Source: an uncultured bacterium (GTDB lineage Bacteria; UBP15; UBA6099; JAJRTR01). Taken from it: DNA of 49,903 bases. Of this stretch, positions 21,773-40,348 are shown one piece after another. A model generated the notes under the pieces. That model had not been told where the DNA came from, did no database searches, and worked only from the letters and a program-made list of their open reading frames with translations. The number at the start of each line of letters is the position of its first letter. Positions within the stretch are counted from its first letter, which is position 1. The DNA is taken from contig CAZQSL010000009.1 in the NCBI GenBank assembly GCA_964595945.1, positions 1-49,903 on the forward strand. Reading direction: 5' to 3'. The translations under genes were made by a program, and so were the position numbers.

Positions 21773-21812
21773 GACGCACCGCGCCGTCTGCACACCGGCG
21801 GCGCGGTGCGTC
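21773..21812 (+). promoter_or_regulatory. Perfect 14-bp GC-rich inverted repeat (GACGCACCGCGCCG / CGGCGCGGTGCGTC, 12-nt loop) between the shell gene and eutB
   Basis: Seen directly. No downstream U-tract, so an intra-operon mRNA processing/stability or attenuator element is more likely than a terminator. Confidence 0.45.
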
Positions 21813-21826
21813 ATACGGGAGTTCTG

Positions 21827-24048: not shown

Positions 24049-24056
24049 TCACCAAG

Positions 24057-24710
24057 ATGCCTCTCGAACCAGTAAAACCAAAAGTCCTTGCCGCACGGAT
24101 TATTCCGCGCGTCAACGATTTCTATCATAAGCAACTTGATCTTCTGCCCGAAGAAGCGTGCATCGGCATGATTACGGCCACGTCCGACGATGCAACATAC
24201 GTATCGCTCGACCACGCGACTAAAGCCGCACAGGTGCGGGTCGTTTATGCCGAATCATTCTACGCTGGCGCGGGAGCGGCGTCCGGCCCACTGAGCGGCG
24301 AAGTCATCGGCATCATTTCAGGCACTGATCCGTCCGAGGTGAAAAGTGGCCTCGACGCGGCCATACAGTACCTTGAAGAAAGCGCGTGGTTCTACACCGG
24401 CGACGACGATGGACACCTCGTATTCTTTCCGCATGTCATTTCACGCGCTGGCGCATATCTGTCCGATCTCGCGCAGGTGCCTTTCGGCAGTCCTCTTTCA
24501 TATCTCATCGCGCCCCCTATCGAAGCCATGTACGCAATGGACCGTTCGCTCAAGGAAGCGGATGTGCAGATGCAGGTGTTCTGGGGTCCGCCGTCGCACA
24601 CCAACTTTGCTGGATGCCTGCTGACAGGTTCGCAAAGTGCGTGTCAGGAATCGGCAAAAGTGTTTTCAGATGCAATCATTGAAGTGGCAGCAAACCCGAT
24701 GCGATTCTGA
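24057..24710 (+). CDS. eutL: BMC-T tandem-domain shell protein EutL
   Basis: Length and sequence are typical of EutL. AGGAG RBS. Confidence 0.85.
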   Translation: MPLEPVKPKVLAARIIPRVNDFYHKQLDLLPEEACIGMITATSDDATYVSLDHATKAAQVRVVYAESFYAGAGAASGPLSGEVIGIISGTDPSEVKSGLDAAIQYLEESAWFYTGDDDGHLVFFPHVISRAGAYLSDLAQVPFGSPLSYLIAPPIEAMYAMDRSLKEADVQMQVFWGPPSHTNFAGCLLTGSQSACQESAKVFSDAIIEVAANPMRF

Positions 24711-24786
24711 TCTGTCGCAGACAAATGTATTTTTGGCCGGATTACCGAATCCCGGCGAAACAAAATAACGGTCAAGAGTGATCACA

Positions 24787-26229
24787 ATGGACAAAGACCT
24801 CGCAGGAATACAGGAAGCACGCGACAAGGTGGCGGCCGCGGTTGCCGCGCAAAAACTACTCGCCGAATTTTCCCAGGAGAAGATCGACCGAATTGTCGCC
24901 CGCATGTGTCAGGCAGGAGCACAGGCAGCCGAAAAGCTCGCGCGTATGGCTGTCGAAGAATCCGGCATGGGCAAAGTTGACGACAAAACCGCGAAAAACG
25001 AACTCGCCACCAGCGGGCTGTATGAATATATTAAGGATATGAAAACCGCAGGCATCGTCAGTGAAGACAAGACGCGAAAAATGTGGGAAGTGGCCGTACC
25101 GGTCGGCGTAGTCGCGGCGATCACGCCCACCACCAATCCAACGTCTACAACGATGCACAATGCGATAGTGGCGATGAAGGCCCGTTGCGCCTCGGTCATC
25201 AGCCCACATCCGCGCTCGAAGAACTGTTCTGCCGAAGCCATCGGCATACTGATGGCGGCGGCGCATTCAGCCGGCGCACCCGAAGGCTCGCTTAATTGTC
25301 TTACATCAGGCACGATGGGTGGCACGACTGAAATAATGAAGAACAGCGGCACGTCGGTCATCGTCGCCACCGGTGGTTCCGACATGGTTCGCGCGGCATA
25401 TTCATGCGGAAAACCGGCCTATGGCGTTGGCCCCGGCAATGTCCCCGCATTCATAGAACGAACCGCCGACATCGAAAAAGCGGTCCGCGATGTCCTGATT
25501 TCAAAATCATTCGATTATGGTGTGATATGCGCGTCCGAACAGGCCATTGTCACTGAAAGGCCAATTCGCGACAAGGTTATTGCGTCGCTTAAACGCAATG
25601 GAGCTTATGTGATGAACACCGATGAAATTGCTAAAATCAATAAAATCATACAGACTCCGGCAGGTGGCCTCAACGCTAAAATTGTCGGGCAGAGCGCCGA
25701 AAAGCTGGCTCAGATGGCAGGATTCAGCGTGCCGAAAAACACGCCCGCACTCGTCGGTGAAATCGACGGCGTTGGGAAAGCATATCCACTTTCCCGCGAA
25801 AAACTCGCCCCGATCCTCGCGCTCTATGTAGAAGACGGATGGGAAAGCGCGTGCGCGCGCTGCATGGAAATGCTCGAATATGGTGGTATTGGTCACACAC
25901 TCGGGCTCCATACGACGAACATTGACCTTGTCAAGGAATTCGCTCTCAAAAAACCTGTCGCACGTCTCATCGTAAATTCGCCGACAACACATGGCGCGGT
26001 TGGTCTTTCTACCGGACTTGCCCCGTCGTTTACACTCGGGTGCGGCGCGGTCGGCGGCACTATTACGACCGACAACATCACGCCCATGCACCTGATAAAT
26101 CTAAAACGTGTAGCGTTCGAACTGAAATCCTTCAACAAGCCCTCCGGCCCGGTCACTACTGATGATGGCGACCTCTCGGGCACAATCCGCAAAGTTGTTT
26201 CACGTCTCATGAAAGAGCAGGCAAAATGA
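24787..26229 (+). CDS. eutE: CoA-acylating acetaldehyde dehydrogenase EutE
   Basis: ALDH fold with catalytic Cys in GVICASEQ. The start could instead be the GTG at 24778. The C-terminal tail [29 protein letters not shown] resembles a linker plus encapsulation helix. Confidence 0.85.
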
Positions 26230-26990
26230 AGAGAGAAGTCCTGACTGAAATAAAACTTCGCGCCCTGAAAAAACAGGGCATTAATCAGGTGGCAATCACC
26301 GAAGGTACGCTTGTCACGCCATCAGCGCGCGACTTTGCCCGGCAGGCTGGCATAACTGTCACGGTCAACGAAGCATCTGTCGCCACGTCCGCGCCTTCGA
26401 AGACAGCCGGGAAATACACTCCGCCCGTAGCGCCAAAAGGCTCCTTCACTAACAGCTATACTGGCGAATCGCTCGATGCGAAACCCGAACATTTTACACA
26501 TCTGCAAGGCAATGTGCTTGTGCAGAAGAATCACCCGCGCATTGCATTCCGTGGCCAGATCGACAAAATTCAGGCCTACGTCGTCGAAGCTCAGATACTT
26601 GCGAAACAGGAGAAAATACCCGCTCTCGAATCAGACCTCGACGATGTGCTCAAGCTCCTGCGCGAGATTATGCGCGCCGAAGTACGCGACGTACCGCTTG
26701 CTGATGTTCCGGTTTTCGGTCTTACTGTCGAGCAACTCCGGGAGGCGTCACACAATCCAGCTAAATTTTTCAATACCGGCCATACGCTTGCCGATAAAAA
26801 TTCGAGCATGGCGGTCGCGCGTATCAACATCATGCGGACCATCGTCCGCGAGGCCGAAATCACCGCGCTTGACGCATTCGCGGGCGGTGTCACTCTCAAG
26901 CCCGAACGCAGTGATATTCTAACTGCCATGAACCGCCTTTCGAGCGCGTTTTACATCTTGATGTGCAAATATTCTGGAGGGTCGGAATGA
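26226..26990 (+). CDS. eutT: EutT-type ATP:cob(I)alamin adenosyltransferase
   Basis: ATGA overlap with eutE. N-terminal LTPSARDF motif and C-terminal ILTAMNRLSSAFYILM motif align to Salmonella EutT. Confidence 0.8.
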   Translation: MKREVLTEIKLRALKKQGINQVAITEGTLVTPSARDFARQAGITVTVNEASVATSAPSKTAGKYTPPVAPKGSFTNSYTGESLDAKPEHFTHLQGNVLVQKNHPRIAFRGQIDKIQAYVVEAQILAKQEKIPALESDLDDVLKLLREIMRAEVRDVPLADVPVFGLTVEQLREASHNPAKFFNTGHTLADKNSSMAVARINIMRTIVREAEITALDAFAGGVTLKPERSDILTAMNRLSSAFYILMCKYSGGSE

Positions 26991-27655
26991 GCGCACGCGA
27001 AGACCAGATCGCCGCGCGAATACTCGCGGAACTAAATAAGGATAAAACGCAGGCGGCGCCAGGCGCGCGATGCAAACTTGACCGCAAATCCATACCAGTC
27101 GGCATTTCCAACCGTCACCTGCACCTCTGCCGGGCCGATCTTGACGCGCTATTCGGTTCGGGGTATGAACTTTCGAAAAAGAATGACCTGTCGCAGAAAG
27201 GGGAATTCGCTTCGAACGAACTGGTCACGCTCACCGGCCCACGGGGCAGCATAGAAAAGGTTCGAGTGCTCGGCCCGCTTCGCCCGGAAACACAGATTGA
27301 AATTTCTCCGACTGATGCCCGCCGCCTCGGAGTGATGCCCCCAGTGCGTCTTTCCGGAGATACCAAAGGCACGCCTGGCCTCACTATCAAGGGGCCGGCT
27401 GGCGAAGTGAAAATGAATTCCGGGCTGATCATCGCCAAGCGTCATCTGCACGCCAATCCCGAACAGGCCAAAGTGCTCGGACTCCGCGATGGCGATGTCA
27501 TCAGCATAAGGGCGCTGACCGAACGGCCCACAATATTCGAAGGCGTGTCAGTCAGAGTGCGCCCGTCATTTGAAATCGAACTCCACATCGATGTGGACGA
27601 AGCCAACGCCGCGATGATAAATAACGGCGACTCAGTCGAAATTGTGAGGAAATAA
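26987..27655 (+). CDS. pduL: PduL-type phosphotransacylase (phosphate acetyl/propanoyl-transferase) with N-terminal encapsulation peptide
   Basis: ATGA overlap with eutT. GGAGG RBS. Duplicated PduL half-domains. Confidence 0.85.
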   Translation: MSAREDQIAARILAELNKDKTQAAPGARCKLDRKSIPVGISNRHLHLCRADLDALFGSGYELSKKNDLSQKGEFASNELVTLTGPRGSIEKVRVLGPLRPETQIEISPTDARRLGVMPPVRLSGDTKGTPGLTIKGPAGEVKMNSGLIIAKRHLHANPEQAKVLGLRDGDVISIRALTERPTIFEGVSVRVRPSFEIELHIDVDEANAAMINNGDSVEIVRK

Positions 27656-27957
27656 TGGCTAAATACAGATTCATAAAAACTCCGACCCGCAACACCATAG
27701 AAATCATCAAGCGCCGGCTCGTAAGCCGTGACCGTGCCGACGAACTCGACTGGACGGCAGTCGGCCTTGTGCAATGCAGTGTGGCCGACATCATCTACGC
27801 ATCCGATGTTGCCGAAAAAACTTCCGATATAATCGCGCTCGAACTCTCCGGCACATGCCCGCAGCACATCACCACTCTTGCGTTGTTCGGCGAAACGGCG
27901 GCGGTCGACGCGGCGCTCGAATCAGTCAAACGCGCTCTCGCCGAGACCGAATGCTGA
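27655..27957 (+). CDS. Circularly permuted BMC shell protein (EutS/PduU type)
   Basis: About 100 aa with a permuted BMC fold. TAATG overlap with pduL. Confidence 0.8.
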   Translation: MAKYRFIKTPTRNTIEIIKRRLVSRDRADELDWTAVGLVQCSVADIIYASDVAEKTSDIIALELSGTCPQHITTLALFGETAAVDAALESVKRALAETEC

Positions 27958-27995
27958 CACGGTGAAACATATATAAAGGATTAAGGTGGGAATCA

Positions 27996-29321
27996 TTGAA
28001 CCGCGATGAACTCGTAAAAATTGTCAGGGACGCTGGAATTGTTGGCTGCGGCGGCGCGGGGTTCCCAACGCACGTCAAGGTCAATGCCAGCGCCGAAGTG
28101 GTGATCGCTAACGGCGCATCGTGCGAACCGCTCCTGCATTCGGACATCCATCTACTCGAACACGAGGCCGGAGGCGTAGTGCGCGGACTGCGTTATGTGA
28201 TGGATGCCGTCGGCGCGAAACGCGGTGTCATTGCCATCAAAAAGAAACATCCAGAAGCCATTTCCGCGGTGGAGCGAGTACTCACAACCGGGATTGAAAT
28301 TTTTACGCTCGAAGATTTTTATCCCGCTGGCGATGAACAGGTTCTCGTATATGAAATCATGGGCAAAATTGTGCCTGAAGGGGGCATTCCGCTCAATGTC
28401 GGCGCGGTTGTGGACAACATCGAAACGCTGTTCAACATCACTCGCGCAGTCGATGGATTCCCCGTCACGCACAGGTGGCTGACGGTAGCGGGAGCAGTGA
28501 GGAAACCCCGCGTGATGCTCGCTCCCGTTGGTGCGCCACTTAGTGAAATACTCGCGCTCGCGGGCGGTGCCACTGTCACGAGTGCCGGCTATATCGAGGG
28601 CGGTCCGATGATGGGCAAAATCATTGACATCGAAACTGCCGTCGTCAAAAAGACCACCACCGGACTGCTTGTTTTTCCGGCTGATCATGTGATTTTTACA
28701 CGCCGCGAAATGTCAATCGAAGCGATCATCAGGCGCGGCATGTCTGCCTGCACGCAATGTACTTACTGTACGGACATGTGCCCGCGATACCTGATCGGCC
28801 ATCGACTGCGCCCCAATCTCACGATGCGCTCCGTCGCGTTCAGCCATTTCGATCCCGAAGGCCCGGCTTCCGATGCCCTTATTTGCTGTGAGTGTGGAGT
28901 CTGCGAAACGACTGCCTGCAATCTCGGCCTGTCGCCGATGCGCGTGAACATGATGCTGAAGAAAAGATATGCGGAAGAGGGCGTAAAATTCAAACGGACG
29001 GAAACGGCGCTCGAAGTCCATCCGTTCAGGTATGCACGGCTCACGCCGATCAAAAATATCATGCAGCGCGGCGACATGCTTGAATGGTACGGGCAGAAAT
29101 TATCAGATGTTACTGAGCTTTTCACGCAACGAGTGGAAGTGCCTCTTAGCCAGCACATAGGCGCTCCTTGTGAAGCTATCGTAGCTCCTGGAGCAAAGGT
29201 GAAGCTGTTCGAAATGATAGGCAAACCATCCGATGGAAAACTCGGCGCGCCGGTGCATTCACCGATAGACGGAACTGTAAAAGATATTACTGACGGAAGA
29301 ATAACAATTGAGGCGAAATGA
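27996..29321 (+). CDS. pduS: PduS-like cobalamin reductase (RnfC/NqrF-like flavin-NAD domain plus two 4Fe-4S clusters)
   Basis: N-terminal GIVGCGGAGFPTHVK motif. Cys clusters CTQCTYCTDMCP and CCECGVCETTAC. TTG start after AAGGTGGG RBS. Confidence 0.8.
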   Translation: MNRDELVKIVRDAGIVGCGGAGFPTHVKVNASAEVVIANGASCEPLLHSDIHLLEHEAGGVVRGLRYVMDAVGAKRGVIAIKKKHPEAISAVERVLTTGIEIFTLEDFYPAGDEQVLVYEIMGKIVPEGGIPLNVGAVVDNIETLFNITRAVDGFPVTHRWLTVAGAVRKPRVMLAPVGAPLSEILALAGGATVTSAGYIEGGPMMGKIIDIETAVVKKTTTGLLVFPADHVIFTRREMSIEAIIRRGMSACTQCTYCTDMCPRYLIGHRLRPNLTMRSVAFSHFDPEGPASDALICCECGVCETTACNLGLSPMRVNMMLKKRYAEEGVKFKRTETALEVHPFRYARLTPIKNIMQRGDMLEWYGQKLSDVTELFTQRVEVPLSQHIGAPCEAIVAPGAKVKLFEMIGKPSDGKLGAPVHSPIDGTVKDITDGRITIEAK

Positions 29322-29875
29322 TGCAGCGAACAATCGGAATGGTTGAATTTCTCAGCGTCGCTAAGGGCATCGAAGGTATCGACGTAATGCTCAAGGCGGC
29401 GGATGTGCAGCTACTTGCGGCAAAACCACTCTGTCCCGGCAAATACATGGTGATGGTAGGCGGCGACGCGGCAGAAGTGGACAGTTCCGTGCAGGCAGGC
29501 ATCAGACATGGCTCGCACTTCATCGTCGGTTACACCTGCATCAACAATGTCCATGAAATGGTGTTCCCTGCGATATGGGGCACTTCAAAATACGACTTGC
29601 GCGCGCTCGGTGTCGTAGAGACTTACAACGTCGTAACAGCAGTTCGCGCAGCCGACATCGCGGCGAAATCAGCCGACATCGAATTGATCGAGCTCCGGCT
29701 TTCGGTTGGCCTCGGCGGCAAGGCATTCATCACACTAACCGGATATGTAGACGCCGTACAGACAGCAGTGGATGCCGGGGCGGCGCTCGCCAACGCTACG
29801 GGCGAACTCGTCAGCAGCGTGGTTATCGCAGCTCCTCATCCTGATTTACACAGGGCGATCAGTACGCCCGTCTGA
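29318..29875 (+). CDS. pduT: BMC-T tandem shell protein, PduT-like
   Basis: 185 aa, two BMC domains. ATGA overlap with pduS. Confidence 0.8.
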   Translation: MMQRTIGMVEFLSVAKGIEGIDVMLKAADVQLLAAKPLCPGKYMVMVGGDAAEVDSSVQAGIRHGSHFIVGYTCINNVHEMVFPAIWGTSKYDLRALGVVETYNVVTAVRAADIAAKSADIELIELRLSVGLGGKAFITLTGYVDAVQTAVDAGAALANATGELVSSVVIAAPHPDLHRAISTPV

Positions 29876-30207
29876 TGAAAAATGACGACTCACACAGGTG
29901 CGATATGGGAAAACTTATTACGAAAAAAGAGATTGTAGAAGCAAACGCGAAACACTTTTCGGAACTCGAAGTGCCATGCGACGCCATCATCACCCCACTT
30001 GCGCAGGATGCCGCGAAACAATATGGCATCGAGATCGTAAAGTCGGGCGGCCCAAGCCGCGCGTGTGACGTACGCTCGCTTCAGGGCGGAGCGGTCGATG
30101 AGGCGGCCATCGAGAAAATCGCGCGCATGGCAATAAGCGACCTCGGTGATAAAGCCGACCTCGAAACGGTCATCCGCATTGTCGAAAAAGTCGTCAGGAA
30201 AATGTAG
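29875..30207 (+). CDS. Small BMC-operon protein homologous to the N-terminal domain of EutT (ITPLAQD motif) with an amphipathic C-terminal helix
   Basis: ATGA overlap with pduT; the start could instead be the ATG at 29905 after an AGGTG. Motif EVPCDAIITPLAQDAAKQYGIEIV parallels EutT QVAITEGTLVTPSARDFARQAGITVTV. The C-terminal DLETVIRIVEKVVRKM resembles the EutE tail [14 protein letters not shown]. Confidence 0.6.
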   Translation: MKNDDSHRCDMGKLITKKEIVEANAKHFSELEVPCDAIITPLAQDAAKQYGIEIVKSGGPSRACDVRSLQGGAVDEAAIEKIARMAISDLGDKADLETVIRIVEKVVRKM

Positions 30208-30309: not shown

Positions 30310-30771
30310 TTATACGAAATAGTACCATTTGTTCATTGGGATTTCTTGTGGATGTATTTCATGGATCGTTCTGATAATTTGCTCCGAGTATTGAACTGCA
30401 ATGTCGGCATCTTCATCAAGCACTTTCATCACGACATCATTGTCGCCTGATGATCGATATCTGAAAAGCTTGGAGTGCATTTCCCCAAAATCCTGCTGGT
30501 ATCTTCCACTTTTCACAAGTTCACGGGGAACTGCTGATGCGACTTGCTGATGTTTCTTGAACATCGCGCCTTCCATTACAGCAAACAATGCACATACAGC
30601 ATAGAACGCAGCGTAGTAAGCCCGATTTGTCAGATCGAAGCCAGTCCTGACTTGCAGGCGATCATCGCGGTCAATTCGCAGGGCCGTCAGAAGATCACGC
30701 GCAAGGCATACTTCAAGATCGAGTTCACGAACGGCTCCATCATCAACTTTAGACCGGTTGGCGCTTACCAT
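30310..30771 (-). CDS. HEPN domain protein (solo, no MNT partner)
   Basis: RAYYAAFYAVCALFA helix. The C-terminal half matches the HEPN pattern. The ORF-track upstream start is a TTG; the ATG at 30771 is chosen. Confidence 0.55.
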   Translation of the reverse strand: MVSANRSKVDDGAVRELDLEVCLARDLLTALRIDRDDRLQVRTGFDLTNRAYYAAFYAVCALFAVMEGAMFKKHQQVASAVPRELVKSGRYQQDFGEMHSKLFRYRSSGDNDVVMKVLDEDADIAVQYSEQIIRTIHEIHPQEIPMNKWYYFV

Positions 30772-30838
30772 TACAAGCAGTTCGCAATTATTGCGACTGC
30801 CCAATGCGGCATATGGATTTCCACATGCCGCATTGGGC

Positions 30839-31699
30839 TTAAGGTGTAGGAAGGGTTCGTTTTTTGCGGGGATGTTTTTTGGAGGTTTCCCAGGGTCTTG
30901 TTAACATTCTGGCAATGGTGCCCAGGAAGAAGAGTATTCCGCCTGAAATAATGATATCGATGCCTGGATTTCGCACAACGCGCACCCAGGGTATCTGTTT
31001 TGCCGGAGCTTGTTTAGAGCCGGGTTTGAGGTGTGCGATGCCTGAGGTGTCGCGCCTCGAATTAAGCGAAAACAGGTAACCGCCAGAACGTACTGTCGTC
31101 TTGTATCCGATGGTGATATTCTTGCCGTTGAATGCTCCTCCGGCCAGTGTGAATGTGGCTTCGTCGACAGTCATGCCGGATTTAGGGTGCATATCATTTT
31201 TTATACCGGTGCATTTCATCGAGAAAGGTACTTTTTCGCTTTTGTATGTTATTCCGGGTTCTATATCGTATGCAACCTTGCATCCTGTCGACGAACTGAT
31301 GAGGTGGCCTGTAAGGATTGTGACGTAGGCGAGGTGCATCAATAAAACCGAAATCTTTGCGGCGATCTGACGATTGCCAGCCTTCTTTTTCATCATTGCC
31401 GTCAAGATGACAACGTCATTGATCAGACATGCTGTCAGATTGGCGCCAAGCGCTGCCGCGATGATGCACAATGCCGCGAGCCAGCCGCGGAGGAAGGCGC
31501 TTTCTGGAGTACCATACAGCATCCATTCAAAGAGTACCCGTTCGTTCATTTCGTTGATCTGTGGTATGAATTTCGGATAGACAAGCAGCAGCACGATCAT
31601 CCAAAAGGCTATCAGGAGAGAGAGCGCGCAAAAAAGATTGGTCGAACACAGTGTGTCCCACACGGTTTCGATAGCGCTTTTTTTCTTTTTGTCTGCCAT
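30839..31699 (-). CDS. Short ResB/CcsB-like cytochrome c biogenesis protein (system II)
   Basis: N-terminal WDTLCSTNLFCALSLLIAFWMIVLLLVYP resembles the ResB TM1. Conserved TM histidines (HLAYVTILTGH). C-terminal TM. The ATG at 31699 overlaps the ccsA end by 19 nt. Confidence 0.55.
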   Translation of the reverse strand: MADKKKKSAIETVWDTLCSTNLFCALSLLIAFWMIVLLLVYPKFIPQINEMNERVLFEWMLYGTPESAFLRGWLAALCIIAAALGANLTACLINDVVILTAMMKKKAGNRQIAAKISVLLMHLAYVTILTGHLISSSTGCKVAYDIEPGITYKSEKVPFSMKCTGIKNDMHPKSGMTVDEATFTLAGGAFNGKNITIGYKTTVRSGGYLFSLNSRRDTSGIAHLKPGSKQAPAKQIPWVRVVRNPGIDIIISGGILFFLGTIARMLTRPWETSKKHPRKKRTLPTP

Positions 31700-31716
31700 G
31701 CTTCTGATGACCGCCG

Positions 31717-32322
31717 TCAAAATGACATCATATATCCAAGATAAGCTGGTGTTACGATGAATTCGTAGTAGACAGTCCACAAAACAATGATCGAAAACCC
31801 GGCGGTGCCGAGCGCTGCCATCGTTTTTTCAGGCATTTTCACACTACCTGGCACGTGAAGAATGCTTGCATAGAAAATCCACACTACCGCGCTGAACACA
31901 TGACTCGATCCCCATACCCACAGATCACCCCACCCTCCGGTCAATGCCCATGCTGCTCCGAATGCCTGGCTTGCCGAATAGATCACAAAGCCGGCAAGCG
32001 CTGTTTTGTATATCATGCCGGTTGGCTTGCAACCGTCCGGAGATCCCTTGCGGGGATTTGCGAGATGTGATATCGAAAGACTGAAAAGGTATGCAAACAC
32101 GGCATAGGACAGTGATACGAGGTAGCCGAACATAACGGAATTGAAGCTGAACGCAAATGCCATTTCCGGCTGCAAACTGGTGTTTCCCGATGCAGTCAAT
32201 CTGAAAAGGGAAAAGAACAGAATGATTGCAAGAGATATTGCGGCAGGTGTTTTTGTCTGATTTCTATCCACGGCCAGGACGAGTACAATCGCGAGAAAAA
32301 AAGCCCGCGACAGAGAATTCAT
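31717..32322 (-). CDS. ccsA: CcsA/ResC-like cytochrome c-type biogenesis protein (WWD domain)
   Basis: Trp-rich segment WALTGGWGDLWVWGSS followed by the conserved ILH histidine. Confidence 0.6.
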   Translation of the reverse strand: MNSLSRAFFLAIVLVLAVDRNQTKTPAAISLAIILFFSLFRLTASGNTSLQPEMAFAFSFNSVMFGYLVSLSYAVFAYLFSLSISHLANPRKGSPDGCKPTGMIYKTALAGFVIYSASQAFGAAWALTGGWGDLWVWGSSHVFSAVVWIFYASILHVPGSVKMPEKTMAALGTAGFSIIVLWTVYYEFIVTPAYLGYMMSF

Positions 32323-32334
32323 CAATTCATAGTC

Positions 32335-32592
32335 TCACGGGAAATTGCGAGTAATGGCCATTGTCGCAAACATAAGGGTGTCAAGCGCTATCCCGCCGGC
32401 AGCGAATGCGCGCGCGTGTCTGTTTGCCTCTTTGTGATCGGTCTTGATGAGGCAAATAAACAGGCCGCACCCGTACAGTGCAACCGCTGTCCACATGAGT
32501 GCATATATCAGAAGCGAATAGTCCACGCAATCACCTGTCCCGTGACATAGCAAATGAATTCTACCCAACTCGTTATGAATGGTCAAGCGCAA
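32335..32592 (-). pseudogene. Two-TM membrane ORF in the same frame as ccsA, separated only by a TGA: possible disrupted N-terminal part of ccsA, or a separate small gene
   Basis: Same reading frame. A single stop codon lies 4 codons before the ccsA start. Confidence 0.3.
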
Positions 32593-32607
32593 CGAATATT
32601 CGCTGTG

Positions 32608-33519
32608 TCATTTTTCAGCCGGGTTAAACTCATCCCACCCGAAAAACTCGATGTAGCGGCTCCAGACCCCCGTGCAGACCGGATCGAACCGGCACCGTGA
32701 GCATTGATCGCGTTTTTCACGGCCTTCGAGTACTGGCTGAGAATAGTTTGCCGAGCGGTCGTCCTTGATCGAATATATCTCCATTGTGCCGATATTGGAA
32801 AGGATGGGCATCGCCGTGCATAGCGGTGTATCATTGAGGGAAATTTTTGAGAGCACTTCAGCAGGTATAGGCTTGATCGCGGATACAATCTCCGTATATG
32901 GCACGAGCAGACGGCTGTTGTCGGCTCGTCCTATCGGCATCAGGGGATTCAGGATAATTGTGTTTATGGGAAAAGCGGACAACTGGTGGCAGTCTGTCGC
33001 AAGGCCATCGATGTTGGGTCTGCACACGACACGGCTCACGTGGAGCTCGAAGTGGTATTTTGAACGTAGCGCGCAAAGGTTGCTGAATCCCGCGAAAGCC
33101 TGTATGAAACCGCCAGGCGAGCGAGTGAGTCGGTCGTGGAGTTCAGGGCGCAGGCTGTGGAGTGAAATCACTATTTCAGTCACTCCCGCGCCTGTGATAC
33201 GTTCGGCGAGATCGCGATAGAACAGCATGCGGCCATTAGTGACAATACTGACGGAGTGGTAGCCAATTTGGCGGGCGAGCGTTATATATTCCGGGAGTTT
33301 CGGATTGAGAGTTGGTTCGCCTGATGTGAAGACGACCTTGCCAAGTCCGATATTCGCTGCGAGTATGGAGCGTACGTTTTCATCTGTCACGAATACCTGT
33401 CTCGCCGCTCTGCCTTCGCGGTCGCCTTCGCAGCAAAAGATGCAGTTGTTGTTGCATGCGGTTCCTATCGCGATGTGAAGGGTGCGAAGTGGATTGTAGT
33501 CTGTCAGTGAGTCGTTCAT
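32608..33519 (-). CDS. Radical SAM enzyme with C-terminal SPASM/twitch-like Cys cluster
   Basis: CNNNCIFC (CxxxCxxC) motif. GEPTLNP motif. C-terminal CSRCRFDPVC (Cx2Cx5C). GAGGG RBS before the ATG at 33519. Confidence 0.8.
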   Translation of the reverse strand: MNDSLTDYNPLRTLHIAIGTACNNNCIFCCEGDREGRAARQVFVTDENVRSILAANIGLGKVVFTSGEPTLNPKLPEYITLARQIGYHSVSIVTNGRMLFYRDLAERITGAGVTEIVISLHSLRPELHDRLTRSPGGFIQAFAGFSNLCALRSKYHFELHVSRVVCRPNIDGLATDCHQLSAFPINTIILNPLMPIGRADNSRLLVPYTEIVSAIKPIPAEVLSKISLNDTPLCTAMPILSNIGTMEIYSIKDDRSANYSQPVLEGREKRDQCSRCRFDPVCTGVWSRYIEFFGWDEFNPAEK

Positions 33520-33532
33520 ATGCGCAACGCCC

Positions 33533-34801
33533 TCATTCGTGCGGCCCATATTCCGTAATATCCCTGATGACGTCAAGGAGTTGAGCTTTGTTACTGGCGT
33601 GCGGGCAGTTGTCTGCGCCGGCAATGACGTTTCCAATGGTTATCACTGCCGATCTGTCAGTCTTGATGGGAGCGATCGCTCCGGGTGACCGTATGTCAGT
33701 AACGCAAATGTTGTAATCGTTTGCGTCGTGCGTGGAAATGCTGTCTCTCTCTGCCGTGACATTGTTGATGCCGAAACTGCTGATGAAATCCCGATACTCC
33801 GAAAGGCTTCCGGGAGAGGCTTCGAAAAAAAGTATTTTTGGTGTGGTACGCCGCCGTGCTTTGCAGGTATCCCAGTGAAGAATGAATGGATTATATCCGG
33901 CCGTTGTATCCTCCGGGGTCAATGCCCTGACAATACTGCCTCCCCTGGATATGATAAGAGCGCCATCGCTTATCGTCAGTTTGTCGCCTTCAGAAATCAT
34001 TTCGCGCAGACGGCCACTGTCTTTGAGCGACGAGAGGTCAGCGGAAGTCACTTTCCCATAACGGATCGCGCGGCCATCCGATTCGCCGTCAAAGCCCATT
34101 ATCGCGCCGTGTTTCCAGTACAGGAGCGGAGCGCGTTTCGCCTCGGCGAGTGAAAGAGCAAATTGAGGCGCCTCGTTGAGGATGGATTTTTCGACGCGAC
34201 GTGCGAGTTCCAGTGATGCTTCGCAATTAAAGGAGCATGGGCTGTGGAGCACATAGGGAAACGGCATAAATCTGTTGAGCCGCGAATCCGGTATGCCGAA
34301 TGTGGAAAAATGTGGGAAGAGCATGTGCGCTGTCTGGTGGATAAGGTCAGGGAGGGCCTGATACGCTTCGATGCAGCACTTGGGATAGCCGAGAAGTGCG
34401 CCGATGCGGCCAGTGGCTTCCCGCCGCTTTGCGCCTGAAGAGTTTTTTTCCACATCGTCCCATCTGGCGGCTTCTTCGGCGAGGGCCTTGTCACGGCTGA
34501 TAAACATCCACACCATTGCGTCGCGCGCGGAAGAGGGACCGGTGATCAGTCCGTTATTACCGAAAGAATACGATGATGAAGGCGACACGACATGCAGTCC
34601 GCCGGCTCTCATCATGCGGGATATGCTCCGGCAAGTCTGCATCGTGATGTTGGACAGCCGCCATACGGGTTTCAGGCCTTGTTCAAACAGGATGAATTCC
34701 GCTGGTTCGATAACCGGGCGTCCATTTTTTCCGGTACGTGTGGCGATTTCGAGGATTTCCCCAAGCGCAAGATTCATACTCGCGTCCATCCACACCGGCA
34801 T
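33533..34801 (-). CDS. Uncharacterised 422-aa protein with conserved Cys motifs (GYPKCC ... CSFNC), coupled to the radical SAM gene
   Basis: Long ORF on the operon strand. No family recognised with confidence. Confidence 0.6.
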   Translation of the reverse strand: MPVWMDASMNLALGEILEIATRTGKNGRPVIEPAEFILFEQGLKPVWRLSNITMQTCRSISRMMRAGGLHVVSPSSSYSFGNNGLITGPSSARDAMVWMFISRDKALAEEAARWDDVEKNSSGAKRREATGRIGALLGYPKCCIEAYQALPDLIHQTAHMLFPHFSTFGIPDSRLNRFMPFPYVLHSPCSFNCEASLELARRVEKSILNEAPQFALSLAEAKRAPLLYWKHGAIMGFDGESDGRAIRYGKVTSADLSSLKDSGRLREMISEGDKLTISDGALIISRGGSIVRALTPEDTTAGYNPFILHWDTCKARRRTTPKILFFEASPGSLSEYRDFISSFGINNVTAERDSISTHDANDYNICVTDIRSPGAIAPIKTDRSAVITIGNVIAGADNCPHASNKAQLLDVIRDITEYGPHE

Positions 34802-34843: not shown

Positions 34844-36157
34844 TTATACATGGAAGTCAAGTTTGAAGACTCTGATGTTTTCAAAGTGTGAGAGGATACT
34901 CCTGAGATTGACCATGATGGACGATTTTTCAGCGCGGTCGATGGATATTGTCAGGAGGGCGGTTTCAATGCGGTGGATGGCGTCACGATATTGCTGCTCG
35001 GTTTCCAACTGAAGTTCTTTCAGCCCGAGAGCGCTTGCGCGAAAGTCGGGGAATTCGACTGAGAAAGCCGATTCCTGCCCGCTACCGATCAAAACCGTTC
35101 GTTGATTGGTTTCGTAGAGGTGCTCGCTGCGGGAGAAAAATCTGTCGAAAATAGATTCGCCGAGTATCGTCATGACTTCGTCCATGGGAGAGATGTCATA
35201 GTTGATATAACGGCCTCCAGTGGCGGTGGCGATCTGGTCGAACGCGCCATGCGGCAGGCGTGAGAGTTGGGCGTATGTACTGACAGGGTAGAGGACAGCG
35301 CCGGATTCCCGGAGCCTGGCGGCAGCGAGGTCACGGGTTTCGCCATAGTCGTCGGTTGTGTCGGATGCAGTAAACAGTACGACGGCTTTTGCCGCTGAGT
35401 CACGCCAGGCGTGATCGGATGAAGACTCGATTATAGCGTTGAGCGCATTTTTCGACATGCCGGCGAAGTATAGTGTCTCTATGTCTTCGATGAATTGAGC
35501 GGCGTCACGGCGTGCTTCTCCGACCGGCTGCGAGTCGTACTCGTAGGTTTGGAGCAAGTAGCGGACATCGAGGCCATGTCCGCTGAGTGTCTTGTGGAGT
35601 ATGTGAAAATGACGGACGAATTCTGTAACATCTTTTTTCATTTGCCTGCTGCGGTCTATTATGAAAAGCACATCGAGATCGCCGGATGCAGAGTCGGATT
35701 CCCGCTGAGGCATTATGCGTAATATTGGGGCGAGGAGCGGAACGGCTCTGTGTCGCGAAGTGACTGCGATAGCGTCGATACGGTCTGCGAGGGCGCGAAG
35801 TTCTTTTTTGATGGCATCCCTGCGCGAACTTGATATGGCAATGCCGTCGAGACTGTATTGCATACGGAGTATCAGATGGACAATCTCGTCGAGCGCCGAG
35901 TCGCGCACCGCGAAAATGTCGATGTCTTCATAGACGTTGCTCAGTACGTCTTCAGCCGCGTGAATCTCTTCGCGGAGTCCGGCGAGGTGCTCACGCCCGA
36001 GTTGCACTTCGATGGGCAAGCGGTCGCGCCGTCTGATATGGGGCAGCGGTTTTTCGGGACGGTCCGCACGCGTCCTTTTTCGTACCAATCTTTCGATGAT
36101 AGCGGGATTGACCACTATCGCCGGGAACTGGGTAGTTGTATGATTGCTTATCGGCAT
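34844..36157 (-). CDS. Cytoplasmic VWA-like domain protein (degenerate MIDAS DRSRQ)
   Basis: Long ORF with a VWA-like central segment (LFIIDRSRQM...LFTASDTTDD). Start ambiguous (ATG 36157 or GTG 36175). Confidence 0.5.
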   Translation of the reverse strand: MPISNHTTTQFPAIVVNPAIIERLVRKRTRADRPEKPLPHIRRRDRLPIEVQLGREHLAGLREEIHAAEDVLSNVYEDIDIFAVRDSALDEIVHLILRMQYSLDGIAISSSRRDAIKKELRALADRIDAIAVTSRHRAVPLLAPILRIMPQRESDSASGDLDVLFIIDRSRQMKKDVTEFVRHFHILHKTLSGHGLDVRYLLQTYEYDSQPVGEARRDAAQFIEDIETLYFAGMSKNALNAIIESSSDHAWRDSAAKAVVLFTASDTTDDYGETRDLAAARLRESGAVLYPVSTYAQLSRLPHGAFDQIATATGGRYINYDISPMDEVMTILGESIFDRFFSRSEHLYETNQRTVLIGSGQESAFSVEFPDFRASALGLKELQLETEQQYRDAIHRIETALLTISIDRAEKSSIMVNLRSILSHFENIRVFKLDFHV

Positions 36158-36279
36158 TCTGCTGAGTGCATCCACGGTTTGTTTTCTCGGTCGGTGTTGC
36201 CGGCTTATAATATGGAGCCGCTATTTATGTATTATATCATTTTACAATGCCTGATGCTCTTAATCAATGCAGTGTTGTT

Positions 36280-37389
36280 CTAAAGTGAAATCCTCCATGT
36301 GACAAACTGAAAAAAAACATATAGCTGCATGGCAAATGAAATGACGATGAGTGTAATGCCACTCCAGTTGCCGCCTTTGAGTGAAGCCAGTCCCATATAG
36401 ATCGGGAATGCCACAAGGACATATCTCGGCACACCATACAGCTTGGTCGCGCTCATGCTCACGAGGACAGTCGACAAGGCATATATGCCGGCTCCGCTTC
36501 CGAAGCCGGTCCACGCGACGACTGAAAGCACTATTGCCATGAGCGACACCGACACGTCGAATCTCGTCAAAAAATTCTGAGGCATGGTTATCTCGTAAGC
36601 CAGGGAGAAAAGGGGGGATGTCAGTCCGTGTCCCCAGTGTTTCTGAGCGGAAAAATATGCGGACGGATCGCCGGTCAGATGATATAGATATGCAAAATAT
36701 ATGAGGATGCCGGCTGGTACTGCCGCCAGCCAGAAAAAATCTGTCCTTGTCGATCGGAAATTCCATTTTCTGGCAGCAAGATACATCACGGCGAGTGCGG
36801 GCAGTAGCAGTACTCCTGACAGGCGGCAAGCCGATGCCGCCATCGCGCAAAGCGATGCTTTGGCTGTGCTGCCTTTCAGCATCGCTCTGTAGGAAAACAT
36901 TGCGAGCATTGTGAAAAGAGATTCGCTGTAGACTGCTGAAAAAATGAACGCTGTTGGAAACGCAGTCATAAATCCTACTGCGATGAGGGCCTTGTCATCT
37001 CCGTATCCGTGCAGCCTGACTATGTCGTGCAGCAAAAGCATCGATATCAGAAAACATATATTCGACACTATCAGTCCGGCGGACAGCAAGTTGCCCGTGA
37101 GTTTCGATATGGCCGCAATGGCGAGTGGGTAGAGTGGAAAAATAGTCACATTGGACTGTGAATCACCGCGATACGAATACCCCTCGCGTACAACCTGTGT
37201 GAACCATAATGCGTCCCAGCGGCGCCATGGTTCGAAAAATCTGTTTTCGATCTGTGTATAGCCATGCCACATCGCTGACTCCGCCGGAGGTCCGGAAGGA
37301 TGGTGGTCAGCGATCCACACGGCAAACCCAAAAATCACAACACGGGTCACTACGAAAGCTGTCAGGATGATTTTTAGACTGCGGGACAT
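36280..37389 (-). CDS. GT-C fold membrane glycosyltransferase, PIG-V/Gpi18-like mannosyltransferase family (DUF2029-like)
   Basis: WDALWFTQVVREGY motif and about 9 TM helices. The ATG overlaps the pilC stop (TAATG). Confidence 0.7.
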   Translation of the reverse strand: MSRSLKIILTAFVVTRVVIFGFAVWIADHHPSGPPAESAMWHGYTQIENRFFEPWRRWDALWFTQVVREGYSYRGDSQSNVTIFPLYPLAIAAISKLTGNLLSAGLIVSNICFLISMLLLHDIVRLHGYGDDKALIAVGFMTAFPTAFIFSAVYSESLFTMLAMFSYRAMLKGSTAKASLCAMAASACRLSGVLLLPALAVMYLAARKWNFRSTRTDFFWLAAVPAGILIYFAYLYHLTGDPSAYFSAQKHWGHGLTSPLFSLAYEITMPQNFLTRFDVSVSLMAIVLSVVAWTGFGSGAGIYALSTVLVSMSATKLYGVPRYVLVAFPIYMGLASLKGGNWSGITLIVISFAMQLYVFFQFVTWRISL

Positions 37390-38609
37390 TATTTTGGAGC
37401 CATGACAATGTTGAAGATCGGCAGATACATGGCGATCGCGATGAATCCGACAACGAGGGCGACAAAGATCGTCACGAGAGGCTCAATGTAGAGAAGCAGG
37501 CGTTTCGTGTAATATTCGATTTCCTTTTCGAGCGCCCCCGAACAGGTGCCGAGCAGGTCGGCCAGCCGGCCACTGTGCTCTCCCGCTGAGATCATATAGA
37601 CGACAAGTGGCGGGAAATACTGGGACAGTCTGAGTGCGGATGACATGTTGCCGCCTGTTTCTACGGTTTCGATCATCTTGTCGACGTCCAGTTCGATGAG
37701 ATGGTTGTCAAGCACTCCTTTTGCAGTGTCGAGGGCTGACAGCAGTGGTACGCCGCAATATATCATCGAACTCATCGTCCTTGTGAATCTCGAAACAAGG
37801 ATTCTCTTGTACAGTTGAGCGTAGATTGGTATTTTCAGATAAAGCCTGTTGGTTATGAGTTTGCCCTGTGCGGTGTATTTCAGAAAATACACGATCGCAA
37901 AAATACCCAAGACTATAGCTATGTCGAATTGCCATTCATGCGCGATAAAATTGCTTGTGTTTACCATTATCTGAGTGATTTTCGGGAGTTGGAACGACGA
38001 TCCCGGGCCACCTTGGGATTCGTAAAACTTAGAAATCTTCGGGATGGCGAAAACCATCAGGAATGCTACCGCAAAAGCCGCGATGGTAAGAACTATTTTG
38101 GGATAGATGAAAGCGCCTTTGAGCGAACGTCTGAGATCGTGGTCCTTTTCCATGTAAGTGCTGAGCCTGATGAGGACTTCGGCGAGGTTTCCCGCGGATT
38201 CGCCCGAACGTATCATGCTGATGAAATAGTGCTCGAAGACCTTCGGGTGTTTTTCGAAGGCTGATGACAGCGACATGCCGTGCTCGACATCTTCACGTAT
38301 TTTTTTGATGACTTTTTTCAGGGTAAAATTGCCGGTCTGCTCTTCAAGCGCGGCGAGTGCGTCGACTGCCGGGAGCCCGGCGTCGATAACTACGCTGAGC
38401 AGCTTTGCGAAAACTACTTTGTCCTCATTTGTGATACGTTGCGGGAGCAGTGGCGCATCTTCGGAAACTTCTGTCTGTTCCGTTACGGCGAGCACTACAT
38501 AGCCGAGTTTCTGCAGTCTGAAATAAACGGATTGCTCCGTGGCTCCATAGAGACTGCCACGATAGTTGCGGCCATGCGAATCTTTTGCGACGAAGGTGAA
38601 ATGAGGCAT
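37389..38609 (-). CDS. pilC: Type IV pilus assembly platform protein PilC (GspF family)
   Basis: Two GspF domains. N-terminal MPHFTFVAKDSHG. The ORF-track start at 38978 is an Arg-rich upstream extension that would overlap pilB. Confidence 0.85.
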   Translation of the reverse strand: MPHFTFVAKDSHGRNYRGSLYGATEQSVYFRLQKLGYVVLAVTEQTEVSEDAPLLPQRITNEDKVVFAKLLSVVIDAGLPAVDALAALEEQTGNFTLKKVIKKIREDVEHGMSLSSAFEKHPKVFEHYFISMIRSGESAGNLAEVLIRLSTYMEKDHDLRRSLKGAFIYPKIVLTIAAFAVAFLMVFAIPKISKFYESQGGPGSSFQLPKITQIMVNTSNFIAHEWQFDIAIVLGIFAIVYFLKYTAQGKLITNRLYLKIPIYAQLYKRILVSRFTRTMSSMIYCGVPLLSALDTAKGVLDNHLIELDVDKMIETVETGGNMSSALRLSQYFPPLVVYMISAGEHSGRLADLLGTCSGALEKEIEYYTKRLLLYIEPLVTIFVALVVGFIAIAMYLPIFNIVMAPK

Positions 38610-38644
38610 GTCGATGAAGTGGCGGAAAAGGCCGCCATGCGGCA

Positions 38645-40348
38645 TCAGTCGATGTTGATGAAGACCGCTCTTCGCACCTCCTCTATTGTCGTGACGCCTT
38701 CGACGACTTTTCTGAACGCCGAATGCCGCAGGGTGCTCATGCCTTCTTCGACCGCCGCGTGACGGATGTGCGAGGCGTTTTCGCCACGCAGTATCATCTG
38801 CTGCACAGTGCCGGTAACGGCCATGACTTCGAATATTCCGATACGTCCGTGATAGCCCGTAAATCCGCAATATTTGCATCCGGCACCCTTGTATATGACT
38901 ACTTTGCCGGTTTTTTCGCTTCGCACGCCGAATTCCTTGAAGAGTTCCTGCACGTCCATCTTGTGTGGTTCTTTGCAATACGGGCAGATGACTCTCACGA
39001 GCCTCTGCGCGATGACGCCAATGACAGAGGCGGAGATAAGATATTCCTTGATACCCATTTCCTGGAGTCTCGAAATCGCGCCGGGGGCATTGGATGTGTG
39101 AAGCGTGCTGAATACAAGGTGGCCGGTCAGCGATGACTGGGTGGCTATCATGGATGTTTCCGAATCTCGGATTTCACCTATCATTATGATATTGGGGTCT
39201 TGCCTGAGGATGCTGCGCAGGCCGGTGGCGAAAGTCGCGCCGGTTGCAGTGTTGACCTGCGACTGGTTGATGCCGGGGAGTTTGTATTCGACAGGGTCTT
39301 CGATGGTCACGATGTTGGCGGCAGTTTTATTGAGACGATTGAGCACCGAGTACAGGGTAGTAGTTTTGCCGCATCCGGTCGGCCCCGTGACAAGTACCAT
39401 GCCGTAAGGTTTTTCGATAAGTTCCTTCACGATGCGCAAGTCATGGGAGTTGAATCCGAGACGCTCTATGTCGATGAGCATCGTATCCTTGCTGAGCAGT
39501 CTCATGACGACTTTTTCGCCGTTGATCGTGAGGTAGGTGGCGACACGGATATCGTACTCGCGCCCGGCTTTGCGGATGGCCATGTGGCCGTCCTGTGGAG
39601 CGCGTTTTTCGGTGATGTCCATATTGGCGAGTATTTTCACCCTCGAAACGATGGAAGCTTCGATATGGCGCGGTATCTGCATGACATCGCGCAATACTCC
39701 GTCAACCCTGTAGCGGACGCGTAGCTGTGATTCCTGTGGTTCGAGATGGATGTCAGACGCGCGCTCGTTTATAGCGCCTTCGATGATATCGACCACGAGC
39801 CTTACAACAGGCGGATTGTCGACCGTGTCGACGATGTCGTCGATGACCAGTTCCCCGCTTTTGAGCGGGATGTGATCTTCGACGTGCATGTCGATGATCG
39901 TCTGTTTTGTGCGGTTAGTAGTGCTGAAGAAATGATTGATGGCAAGGCTGATTTCGCGCTCCGTGGCAAAATGGATTCTCACCCTGTATCCGGTTGTCAG
40001 TTCTATTTCGTCGATGACGGTAAGATTGGTTGGCGGATACATGGCAATACTGATCTGGTCCGTATCGAGTTTGAATGGAAAAACATTGTACTGCCGCAGA
40101 AGTTCTTCTGGAAGAAGGTTGGGTATCTGTGGCTCGATGTTTTCCTCTTTGAGCTCGATGCGTTCGATGCCGAGCTGCTCGCCAAGTACGTCGACATAGG
40201 TTTCCTGCGTGATCATCCCGAGGTCGATCAGAGCGCGCCCGAGCGCGGTCGCCCCCGTACTCCTCGTCTGGCGGCGTGCCTTTGCAAGCTGTTCTTCTGT
40301 AATTTCAGTCTTTGTCTTCAGTATTTCAACAAAGCGCGCGCGTCCCAT
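38645..40348 (-). CDS. pilB: Type IV pilus/T2SS assembly ATPase PilB (GspE family) with MshEN-like N-terminal domain
   Basis: GSPII_E N-domain. Walker A LVTGPTGCGKTTT. Tetracysteine motif CPYCK...CKYCGFTGY. GGAAGGGG RBS. Confidence 0.9.
   Translation of the reverse strand: MGRARFVEILKTKTEITEEQLAKARRQTRSTGATALGRALIDLGMITQETYVDVLGEQLGIERIELKEENIEPQIPNLLPEELLRQYNVFPFKLDTDQISIAMYPPTNLTVIDEIELTTGYRVRIHFATEREISLAINHFFSTTNRTKQTIIDMHVEDHIPLKSGELVIDDIVDTVDNPPVVRLVVDIIEGAINERASDIHLEPQESQLRVRYRVDGVLRDVMQIPRHIEASIVSRVKILANMDITEKRAPQDGHMAIRKAGREYDIRVATYLTINGEKVVMRLLSKDTMLIDIERLGFNSHDLRIVKELIEKPYGMVLVTGPTGCGKTTTLYSVLNRLNKTAANIVTIEDPVEYKLPGINQSQVNTATGATFATGLRSILRQDPNIIMIGEIRDSETSMIATQSSLTGHLVFSTLHTSNAPGAISRLQEMGIKEYLISASVIGVIAQRLVRVICPYCKEPHKMDVQELFKEFGVRSEKTGKVVIYKGAGCKYCGFTGYHGRIGIFEVMAVTGTVQQMILRGENASHIRHAAVEEGMSTLRHSAFRKVVEGVTTIEEVRRAVFINID

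Follow-up and report, generated by a model that had tools for sequence, protein, structure and literature searches.

The only characterised His-Xaa-Ser (HXS) system is an anti-phage system of four genes, in which the HxS-repeat effector HxsA is matured by the radical S-adenosylmethionine (SAM) enzymes HxsB and HxsC together with HxsD; the matured product goes to the periplasm, additional host factors are suspected, 99.7% of the systems lie in Pseudomonadota, and DUF483 proteins are no part of the system as described (PMC13128918). A module of a radical SAM enzyme and a DUF483 protein, with no function assigned to it, has already been noted in the Thermus phages Cumys and phiMa and in prophages (PMC11437467). 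Cytochrome c synthetases of the CcsBA type (system II) contain four conserved His residues, each of which is needed for haem attachment, with P-His1 and P-His2 flanking the WWD motif (PMC6299221). Here we analyse a locus that recalls all three in part, on contig CAZQSL010000009.1, a complete 49,903-bp contig of a metagenome-assembled genome (MAG). The whole contig forms the window of this study, and contig-wide negative results accordingly cover about 50 kb only. Four open reading frames (ORFs), all on the minus strand, occupy positions 30839-34801 as originally predicted and encode, in the direction of transcription, a DUF483 protein, an HxsC-like radical SAM enzyme, a CcsA-like protein and a ResB-like protein, with intergenic distances of -17, 81 and 17 nt and with a HEPN gene next in order.

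The original prediction, made from the letters of the window, had coupled the radical SAM enzyme and an unplaced Cys-motif protein to a dedicated CcsA/ResB pair, and had kept as its fallback a maturation pair resembling those for ribosomally synthesized and post-translationally modified peptides (RiPPs) that merely happens to be adjacent. The evidence somewhat favours the fallback: the four packed genes are probably two separate modules, adjacent by circumstance, and the DUF483 protein and HxsC-like enzyme belong to a pair that recurs in His-Xaa-Ser-type clusters. The coupling to a dedicated CcsA/ResB pair was not borne out, as the synteny is not conserved, the P-His ligands are lost, the ccsA frame is broken and no cytochrome is encoded on the contig. 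A dedicated haem-modification operon is likewise not supported, within a lineage of which few genomes are sampled. The radical SAM/DUF483 pair is a further case of a module that has been noted and is uncharacterised, and the CcsA/ResB-like pair without P-His ligands departs in an unusual way from a known system.

The DUF483 protein and the radical SAM enzyme

The 422-aa protein, for which no family had been proposed, matches Pfam DUF483 (PF04467) with 27.8 bits against a cut-off of 25. The Cys motifs first read in it are confirmed as GYPKCC (residues 138-143) and CSFNC (residues 189-193), and six of their residues (G138, P140, C142, C143, C189 and C193) are the only ones invariant across 23 diverse DUF483 relatives, where they coincide with the motifs GYPxCC and PCSxxC. 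The conserved DUF483 domain spans residues ~30-305 and is followed by an extra C-terminal domain (~310-422), which the closest relative (P0124, 39% identity) has in the same place. The AlphaFold model of residues 21-310 is confident (predicted local distance difference test, pLDDT, of 88), and the core is predicted to fold like PG1857 (PDB 2GUK) and NleE (PDB 4R29). A BFVD fold search returned only weak matches, to uncharacterised phage proteins. An exhaustive HMMER search recovered 767 cluster representatives at E<=1e-3, 12 IMG/VR contigs hold DUF483 relatives, and the DUF483 domains occur standalone or fused to GFO/IDH/MocA oxidoreductase, Trp-halogenase-like or radical SAM domains. P0124 itself is 950 aa long, its ~600 additional C-terminal residues carrying CPYKKDATDC and GCSFC motifs without a Pfam match, and is encoded at two loci (L180:6010-8862 and L181:1808-4660) a few genes away from NifS, NifU and Rrf2.

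The radical SAM gene was taken to start at Met30 of the listed ORF, where the 313-aa entry P0004 of the protein collection also begins. From this start (33549) the gene overlaps the end of the DUF483 gene (33533) by 17 nt, and from a TTG start by 104 nt, in keeping with the overlap originally described. The enzyme matches Pfam Radical_SAM (PF04055, 68.7 bits) and contains the cluster motif CNNNCIFC (CX3CX2C; C32, C36 and C39) and a C-terminal CSRCRFDPVC (CX2CX5C). Thus the two motifs behind its earlier description as a radical SAM/SPASM protein are present, whereas the SPASM domain, with its seven-Cys motif, is not recognised by Pfam (PF13186), the region showing only CX2CX5C and one upstream invariant Cys. 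Across 27 homologues no substitution occurs at seven cysteines (C32, C36, C39, C244, C283, C286 and C292); the last four of these could hold one auxiliary Fe-S cluster, and from its Cys pattern the C-terminal region could be a one-cluster 'twitch'-like domain.

HxsC4 leads the 40 NCBIfam matches by a wide margin (NF038332, 218 bits where the cut-off asks for 500). HxsC (TIGR03977) reaches 64.9 bits against a cut-off of 267.9 and scores together with MoaA-type models at about 65-71 bits, the enzyme falling below the curated cut-offs of both HxsC4 and HxsC. A haem-related identity was rejected on the scores of AhbD (53.1 against 500), NirJ2 (48.3 against 500), AhbC (41.3 against 650) and NirJ1 (39.6 against 650), and a HemW or HemN identity was rejected because neither model is in the best 25 of the 40 matches. 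From these family scores the enzyme is neither HemW-like nor a recognised haem enzyme, so that the housekeeping identity raised as a counter-case in the original prediction does not apply. Homologues at 35-50% identity adjoin several radical SAM genes as well as HxsD and HxsB-like genes, with no CcsA or ResB among them, and the homologues P0006, P0009, P0010 and P0013 lie in multi-radical-SAM or HxsD clusters without CcsA. The closest relative (59% identity) is the only one above 50% and lies on a 1.3-kb contig, where the 52-aa fragment encoded upstream has no detectable homology to the DUF483 C-terminus.

The partnership of the two proteins recurs among other DUF483 loci, both as neighbours and as fusions. 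The loci sampled comprised 80 from GTDB genomes and 80 from JGI metagenomes, 157 of them with a detectable DUF483 ORF, and in 31 of the 157 a radical SAM gene matching that of the window (E<1e-20) lies within 3 kb of DUF483. Many paired loci keep the order of DUF483 followed by the radical SAM gene, often directly adjacent (e.g. L087, L119, L122 and L137), and fusions are seen in P0058 (confirmed by Pfam) and in L084 and L090, where both domains lie in one ORF. The paired loci carry about 7 radical SAM ORFs each, and in 11 of the 35 that were analysed there is an A24-peptidase-like membrane protein with a type IV prepilin peptidase domain. Precursor-like ORFs with HxS repeats and a shared leader are present in at least four DUF483/radical SAM loci (Table 1). 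The multi-radical-SAM clusters with such precursor-like ORFs look like expanded HXS-type systems outside Pseudomonadota. DUF483 and an HxsC-like radical SAM enzyme thus form a maturase module that recurs, has yet to be characterised and is tied to expanded His-Xaa-Ser-type systems.

Two features of these clusters stand out in their own right. The common leader of the precursor-like ORFs (MKKK..AFLSSEEGKISKKS.LELG) is followed by long SHGSHGSHSSH... repeats, and the hosts of two such loci (L025 and L050) are labelled as Saccharibacteria and Elusimicrobiales MAGs. The recurrent A24 protein is ~380 aa long with Peptidase_A24 at its N-terminus (L119:15157-16320 on the plus strand, L090:1078-2214 on the minus strand, and nine more loci), and this membrane protein may be the leader-processing enzyme of these systems.

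The window contains no HxS-repeat ORF, leader motif, second radical SAM gene, HxsA, HxsB, HxsD or A24 peptidase. With HxsA, HxsB, HxsD and the A24 peptidase absent the pair is an orphan, whose substrate lies elsewhere or is different. No phage genes were found near the pair, which is chromosomal, and scans of the PADLOC and PHROGs libraries gave only generic matches at the level of radical SAM and viperin proteins.

The DUF483 protein and the HxsC-like enzyme would together act as a two-component radical-SAM maturase. The enzyme would cleave SAM at its CX3CX2C cluster, assisted by a putative second cluster on the four invariant C-terminal cysteines, and would then modify a protein or peptide substrate encoded elsewhere, by analogy with the action of HxsB and HxsC on HxsA. 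The invariant four-Cys site on the PG1857/NleE-like core of the DUF483 protein may bind or present this substrate, or may hold a metal or Fe-S centre. The assignment of these roles draws on the family matches, the recurrence of the pair and its fusions, the HXS parallel, the precedent of the Thermus phage module and the overlap of stop and start; the chemistry and the class of substrate we infer by analogy.

The CcsA-like and ResB-like genes

The CcsA-like gene is not unusually short, as had been thought, being one frame cut by an in-frame TGA (32335-32337). The 202-aa ORF is the C-terminal part of this CcsA-type frame, the upstream 85-aa ORF shares the frame, and only the TGA separates them; read through, the protein has 269 aa, within the normal range of 263-391 aa given by three annotated examples. 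The 5' piece (32338-32526) encodes two transmembrane (TM) helices and most likely starts at a GTG at 32526 with AGGTGA ahead of it. Alignment to annotated ccsA by tblastn covers residues 17-249 as a single piece across the TGA, and the alignment to a hidden Markov model (HMM) spans the TGA within a conserved loop (canonical ...P-x-x-N-M-Y-E, here ...F-P-*-D-Y-E). The family match is to Pfam Cytochrom_C_asm (PF01578), whose profile is matched from position 34 to 202 of 212 with 42.2 bits (cut-off 29.9), and to an HMM built from the three annotated CcsA proteins (35.5 bits, E 6e-11), with a score below the cut-off for the NCBIfam equivalog ccsB (TIGR03144, 36.7 bits against 187.6).

The eight TM helices are intact in the read-through protein and the positive-inside topology is preserved. 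A WWD-type Trp-rich motif (WALTGGWGDLWVWGSSH) is present in the 3' part, and W193, W199, W203, W205 and W216 align with the canonical WWD Trp residues, while WGSSH stands in the place of WDPKE. TM-His2 (H224, counted along the read-through protein) is shared with all three annotated CcsA proteins. Neither P-His1 nor P-His2 is present: where canonical CcsA has 'WLAIHV' and 'LHSYA', the window protein has 'SVMFGY' and 'LGYMMSF'. There is no His at residues 38-153 nor past 224, hence the loss of the P-His ligands is independent of the details of the alignment.

Decoding of the TGA as selenocysteine was rejected as unsupported. The hairpin found ~27 nt downstream is no more stable than shuffled sequence (z = -0.17) and has a U-rich loop without G, and a scan of the contig found no tRNA gene (including tRNA-Sec) and no Rfam match. 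Genome-wide recoding was rejected as well, TGA being the stop of 21 of the 36 genes on the contig. The TGA may mark a real split of the gene, may have arisen recently by nonsense mutation, or may be an error of the assembly.

The ResB-like protein is genuinely short, as the original prediction had it (286 aa against 434-547 aa in annotated ResB), and its assignment to the family is weak. At 12.6 bits (E=0.06) the match to Pfam ResB (PF05140) stays below the cut-off of 24.6, a three-sequence ResB HMM gives E of about 1, and hhalign to ResB aligns only the C-terminal helix with a probability of 1.5%. There was no match to plasmids by tblastn even at E<=10 and no relative among JGI metagenome contigs, and the single-sequence AlphaFold2 model (pLDDT 45.7, predicted template modelling score, pTM, of 0.28) is too poor to use. 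By hydropathy the N-terminus is inside and is followed by TM1-TM3, then by a periplasmic segment of 118 aa, and the protein ends with TM4 and a basic tail; this topology, the positive-inside pattern and the adjacency to ccsA fit ResB. In a MAFFT alignment with three annotated ResB proteins H122 (TM3) falls in an invariant column, the alignment being of low confidence, and a C-terminal 'VRNPG...G' helix aligns as well. Together these sequence features weakly suggest that the 286-aa protein belongs to the ResB family.

The ResB-like gene starts (31699) 17 nt past the stop of the CcsA-like gene, and the order ccsA-resB is the reverse of that in three annotated resB-ccsA pairs. Each of the two proteins is a singleton when a collection of 15 billion proteins is clustered at 90% identity. 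No gene for thiol reduction (CcdA or ResA) and no cytochrome was found nearby, and the search for a cytochrome with an unusual motif, suggested in the original prediction, came back empty: no c-type cytochrome candidate (CXXCH, CXXCK or CXnCH protein) is encoded on the 50-kb contig. The pair is probably a highly diverged, miniaturised pair of the system II CcsA/ResB type with its TM haem site retained, and as a CcsBA-like pair without periplasmic histidines it is the only odd part of the locus. Because the P-His ligands and most of the ResB periplasmic domain are lost and the frame contains the TGA, a standard role as cytochrome c synthetase is impossible. A single stop in about 555 otherwise open codons and the preserved TM helices argue against old decay. 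The pair may bind haem or pass it across the membrane without attaching it, or it may have been inactivated recently.

Linkage of the two pairs and alternative explanations

Synteny with ccsA/resB, the absence of which the original prediction had named as evidence against itself, was sought near 160 DUF483 genes and four radical SAM homologues (about 1.9 Mb of sequence), and none was found in these loci. The CcsA-like and ResB-like proteins of the window have no match there at E<1, and canonical CcsA and ResB HMMs have none at E<1e-3. The closest DUF483 relative has no CcsA or ResB nearby, its neighbours being housekeeping genes of the Fe-ADH/DHQS-like, DUF2400, ferredoxin, NifS, NifU and Rrf2 types, and on the contig of the closest radical SAM relative the first 32 residues of the next gene are non-hydrophobic, with no CcsA or ResB relative seen. 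The only genes common to the window and the other DUF483/radical SAM loci are the radical SAM gene and DUF483 themselves. In addition, the best sigma-70-like site on the minus strand of the region lies inside the 81-nt gap between the radical SAM and CcsA-like genes (Table 1) and is possibly a separate transcription start for the CcsA/ResB pair; promoter-like sites in the region do not exceed the shuffled expectation, which makes the site weak evidence. The G+C content at third codon positions (GC3) is slightly lower in the CcsA 3' part (0.52) and the ResB-like gene (0.56) than in the radical SAM (0.61) and DUF483 (0.60) genes.

Several observations weigh against two independent modules. No terminator-like site was seen among the four genes, and given one strand and the short distances between the genes, co-transcription is quite possible. 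The loci compared are all distant, with DUF483 relatives at most 39% identical, and a lineage-specific coupling could therefore not have shown in them. No close relative of the CcsA-like or of the ResB-like protein could be detected from which their usual neighbours might be read. On the other side of the locus, no substrate for the DUF483/radical SAM module was identified on the contig, and the chemistry of the HxsC family is unsettled even in the model HXS system (PMC13128918). Lastly, the long run of open codons with one stop suggests selection until recently and is silent on function.

The same packing of the genes, with overlapping or short junctions and no terminator between them, is what would be expected of one functional four-gene operon, in which a ResB/CcsA-like channel delivers haem to, or exports the product of, a process that depends on the radical SAM enzyme and DUF483. 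This would be a new pathway for the maturation of haem, tetrapyrroles or periplasmic proteins and would employ non-canonical ligands, such as H209, which lies in the WWD loop, or the Met residues next to both of the lost His positions. It would account for ORFs that are intact except for one TGA, which indicates long-term constraint on an unusual sequence, and for the retention of the TM-His pair and the WWD Trp residues while the P-His ligands are lost, which resembles re-purposing rather than decay; the HXS parallel, in which radical SAM enzymes mature a product destined for the periplasm, with a suspected need for further host factors, also fits (PMC13128918). Nevertheless we regard such an operon as distinctly unlikely, since the linkage is absent from about 160 loci and from the closest relatives, a promoter-like site lies between the modules, ccsA has an in-frame stop, the 50-kb contig has no gene for a cytochrome or an HxS-repeat substrate, and the enzyme is far from haem-acting families (AhbD at 53 bits, NirJ at 48 bits or less). 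Very unlikely in our estimate is its specific form as a re-purposed CcsBA-type machine that, co-transcribed with the DUF483/radical SAM maturase, hands on a TM-His-bound haem or tetrapyrrole, or exports a product, through non-His ligands. The literature searched contains no description that links radical SAM chemistry to a haem-handling membrane complex.

Decay of the CcsA/ResB-like genes to a functionless remnant beside an unrelated radical SAM pair, as system II disappears or has disappeared from the organism, would explain the in-frame stop, the loss of the essential His residues and of the DPKE in the WWD motif, the shrunken ResB, the singleton sequences without relatives and a GC3 slightly under that of the neighbouring genes. 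A remnant would scarcely be expected to have only one stop in so many codons, the full set of TM helices (eight in CcsA, four in ResB), a positive-inside topology, the Trp residues and both TM-His residues, however, and divergence this deep without further stops or frameshifts points to long selection, with inactivation at most very recent; we consider this explanation unlikely. Wolinella succinogenes has specialised CcsBA isoenzymes for CX15CH and CXXCK motifs, a precedent for reading the pair, in line with the original prediction, as a dedicated cytochrome c synthetase for a non-standard haem motif, with a modification added by the radical SAM enzyme; the TGA would then be decoded as selenocysteine, be read through or be an assembly error. 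The CcsA match above the Pfam threshold and the position of the TGA inside a conserved loop, so that the full-length product would be CcsA-shaped, agree with this reading. It is rendered highly improbable by the loss of P-His1 and P-His2, each needed for haem attachment (PMC6299221), and by the change of WDPKE to WGSSH, by the lack of a structure resembling a selenocysteine insertion sequence (SECIS) beyond chance and of an Rfam match, by the ordinary use of TGA as a stop in 21 of 36 genes, and by the absence of any CXXCH, CXXCK or CXnCH protein on the contig and of conserved synteny. Two separate modules that became neighbours by circumstance remain the explanation thought most likely.

The genes upstream of the locus include pilus-like ones (Table 1), and no prepilin-type gene or type IV pilin substrate was found on the contig. 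The VWA protein next to the DUF483 gene weakly matches, with its C-terminus, the flagellin C-terminal region (NCBIfam flagellinolysin, E 1.7e-4), and a second VWA-domain protein of the contig is a 748-aa VIT-VWA protein (44328-46574, plus strand). Downstream, the HEPN protein adjoins the ResB-like gene without an obvious nucleotidyltransferase partner, and its gene has the lowest GC3 among the contig genes (0.44 against about 0.60). An ordinary ethanolamine-utilisation (Eut) microcompartment operon on the plus strand (21806-30207; EutB, EutC, aldehyde dehydrogenase, PduL-like, RnfC-like and shell-type ORFs) stops about 100 nt short of the HEPN gene.

Table 1. Features of the locus and its surroundings (window positions) and precursor-like ORFs of other DUF483/radical SAM loci (locus:positions)
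Feature	Position	Strand	Basis
PilS-like regulator (PilS/PilR-like regulators)	42038-43549	-	
PilR-like regulator (PilS/PilR-like regulators)	40604-42034	-	
GspE-type ATPase (GspE/PilB-like)	38645-40348	-	
GspF-type platform protein (GspF/PilC-like)	37389-38978	-	
GT-C/PIG-V-like membrane protein	36280-37389	-	
VWA protein	34844-36175	-	
DUF483-family protein, 422 aa	33533-34801	-	Pfam DUF483 (PF04467)
HxsC-like radical SAM enzyme, 313 aa from Met30	32608-33549	-	Pfam Radical_SAM, NCBIfam HxsC4
Promoter-like site TTGACC-17-TAGAAT, 10/12 matches	32558-32586	-	Consensus scan
CcsA-like 5' fragment, two TM helices, GTG start to in-frame TGA	32335-32526	-	Same frame as 3' part
CcsA-like 3' part, 201 aa from ATG	31717-32322	-	Pfam Cytochrom_C_asm
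ResB-like membrane protein, 286 aa	30839-31699	-	Weak ResB match and topology
HEPN-domain protein	30310-30804	-	Pfam 22 bits, at threshold
HxS-repeat precursor-like ORF	L109:3201-4643	+	
HxS-repeat precursor-like ORF	L025:1803-2652	+	
HxS-repeat precursor-like ORF	L050:3-365	-	
HxS-repeat precursor-like ORF	L090:15588-15896	-	

Significance and comparison with known systems

If the modules are independent, the locus adds to the evidence for DUF483 as a regular partner of HxsC-type radical SAM enzymes and, with the loci compared here, places DUF483 in expanded His-Xaa-Ser-type clusters of Saccharibacteria and Elusimicrobiales MAGs, further DUF483 loci coming from Myxococcota and from DPANN-type archaeal MAGs. 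A CcsBA-type pair with a membrane haem site and no external His ligands lies outside the standard models of system II and could mark a handling of haem other than cytochrome c synthesis; its weight is tempered by the fact that it is a singleton, interrupted, and weakly supported in its ResB half. Were the four genes to cooperate after all, radical SAM chemistry would be linked to a haem-handling membrane complex, and a re-purposed machine would represent a previously undescribed pathway for the maturation of a cofactor or of periplasmic proteins.

The predicted fold of the DUF483 core relates it to the uncharacterised protein PG1857 (2GUK) and to the cysteine methyltransferase NleE (4R29) at 9-17% identity, with ~110 of the ~275 domain residues matched. 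The second pair compares with system II CcsBA/ResBC (CcsA corresponding to ResC, and CcsB to ResB and Ccs1). The CcsA-like protein shares with it the eight TM helices, the WWD Trp residues and TM-His2, the ResB-like protein shares the four-TM layout, a TM3 His and the motif of the C-terminal helix, and the genes of the two types are adjacent in both. It differs from system II in the absence of P-His1 and P-His2, the WGSSH in place of WDPKE and the in-frame TGA of the CcsA-like gene, in the 118-aa periplasmic segment and overall 286 aa of the ResB-like protein, and in the reversed gene order.

The first pair resembles the Thermus phage module (PMC11437467) in its domain pairing, as each places a radical SAM enzyme beside DUF483 and fused forms are known. 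A third conserved gene accompanies the phage module, which is discussed in terms of DNA modification, whereas the pair in the window is chromosomal. In comparison with the HXS system (TIGR03976-03979), the scores of the radical SAM enzyme fall far short of the family cut-offs (218 against 500 and 65 against 268 bits) and the 50-kb window is without HxsA, HxsB and HxsD. The likeness to HXS lies in the enzyme, which matches the HxsC4 and HxsC models best, and in the company kept by its relatives, homologues of the enzyme adjoining HxsD and HxsB-like genes and other DUF483/radical SAM pairs adjoining HxS-repeat ORFs.

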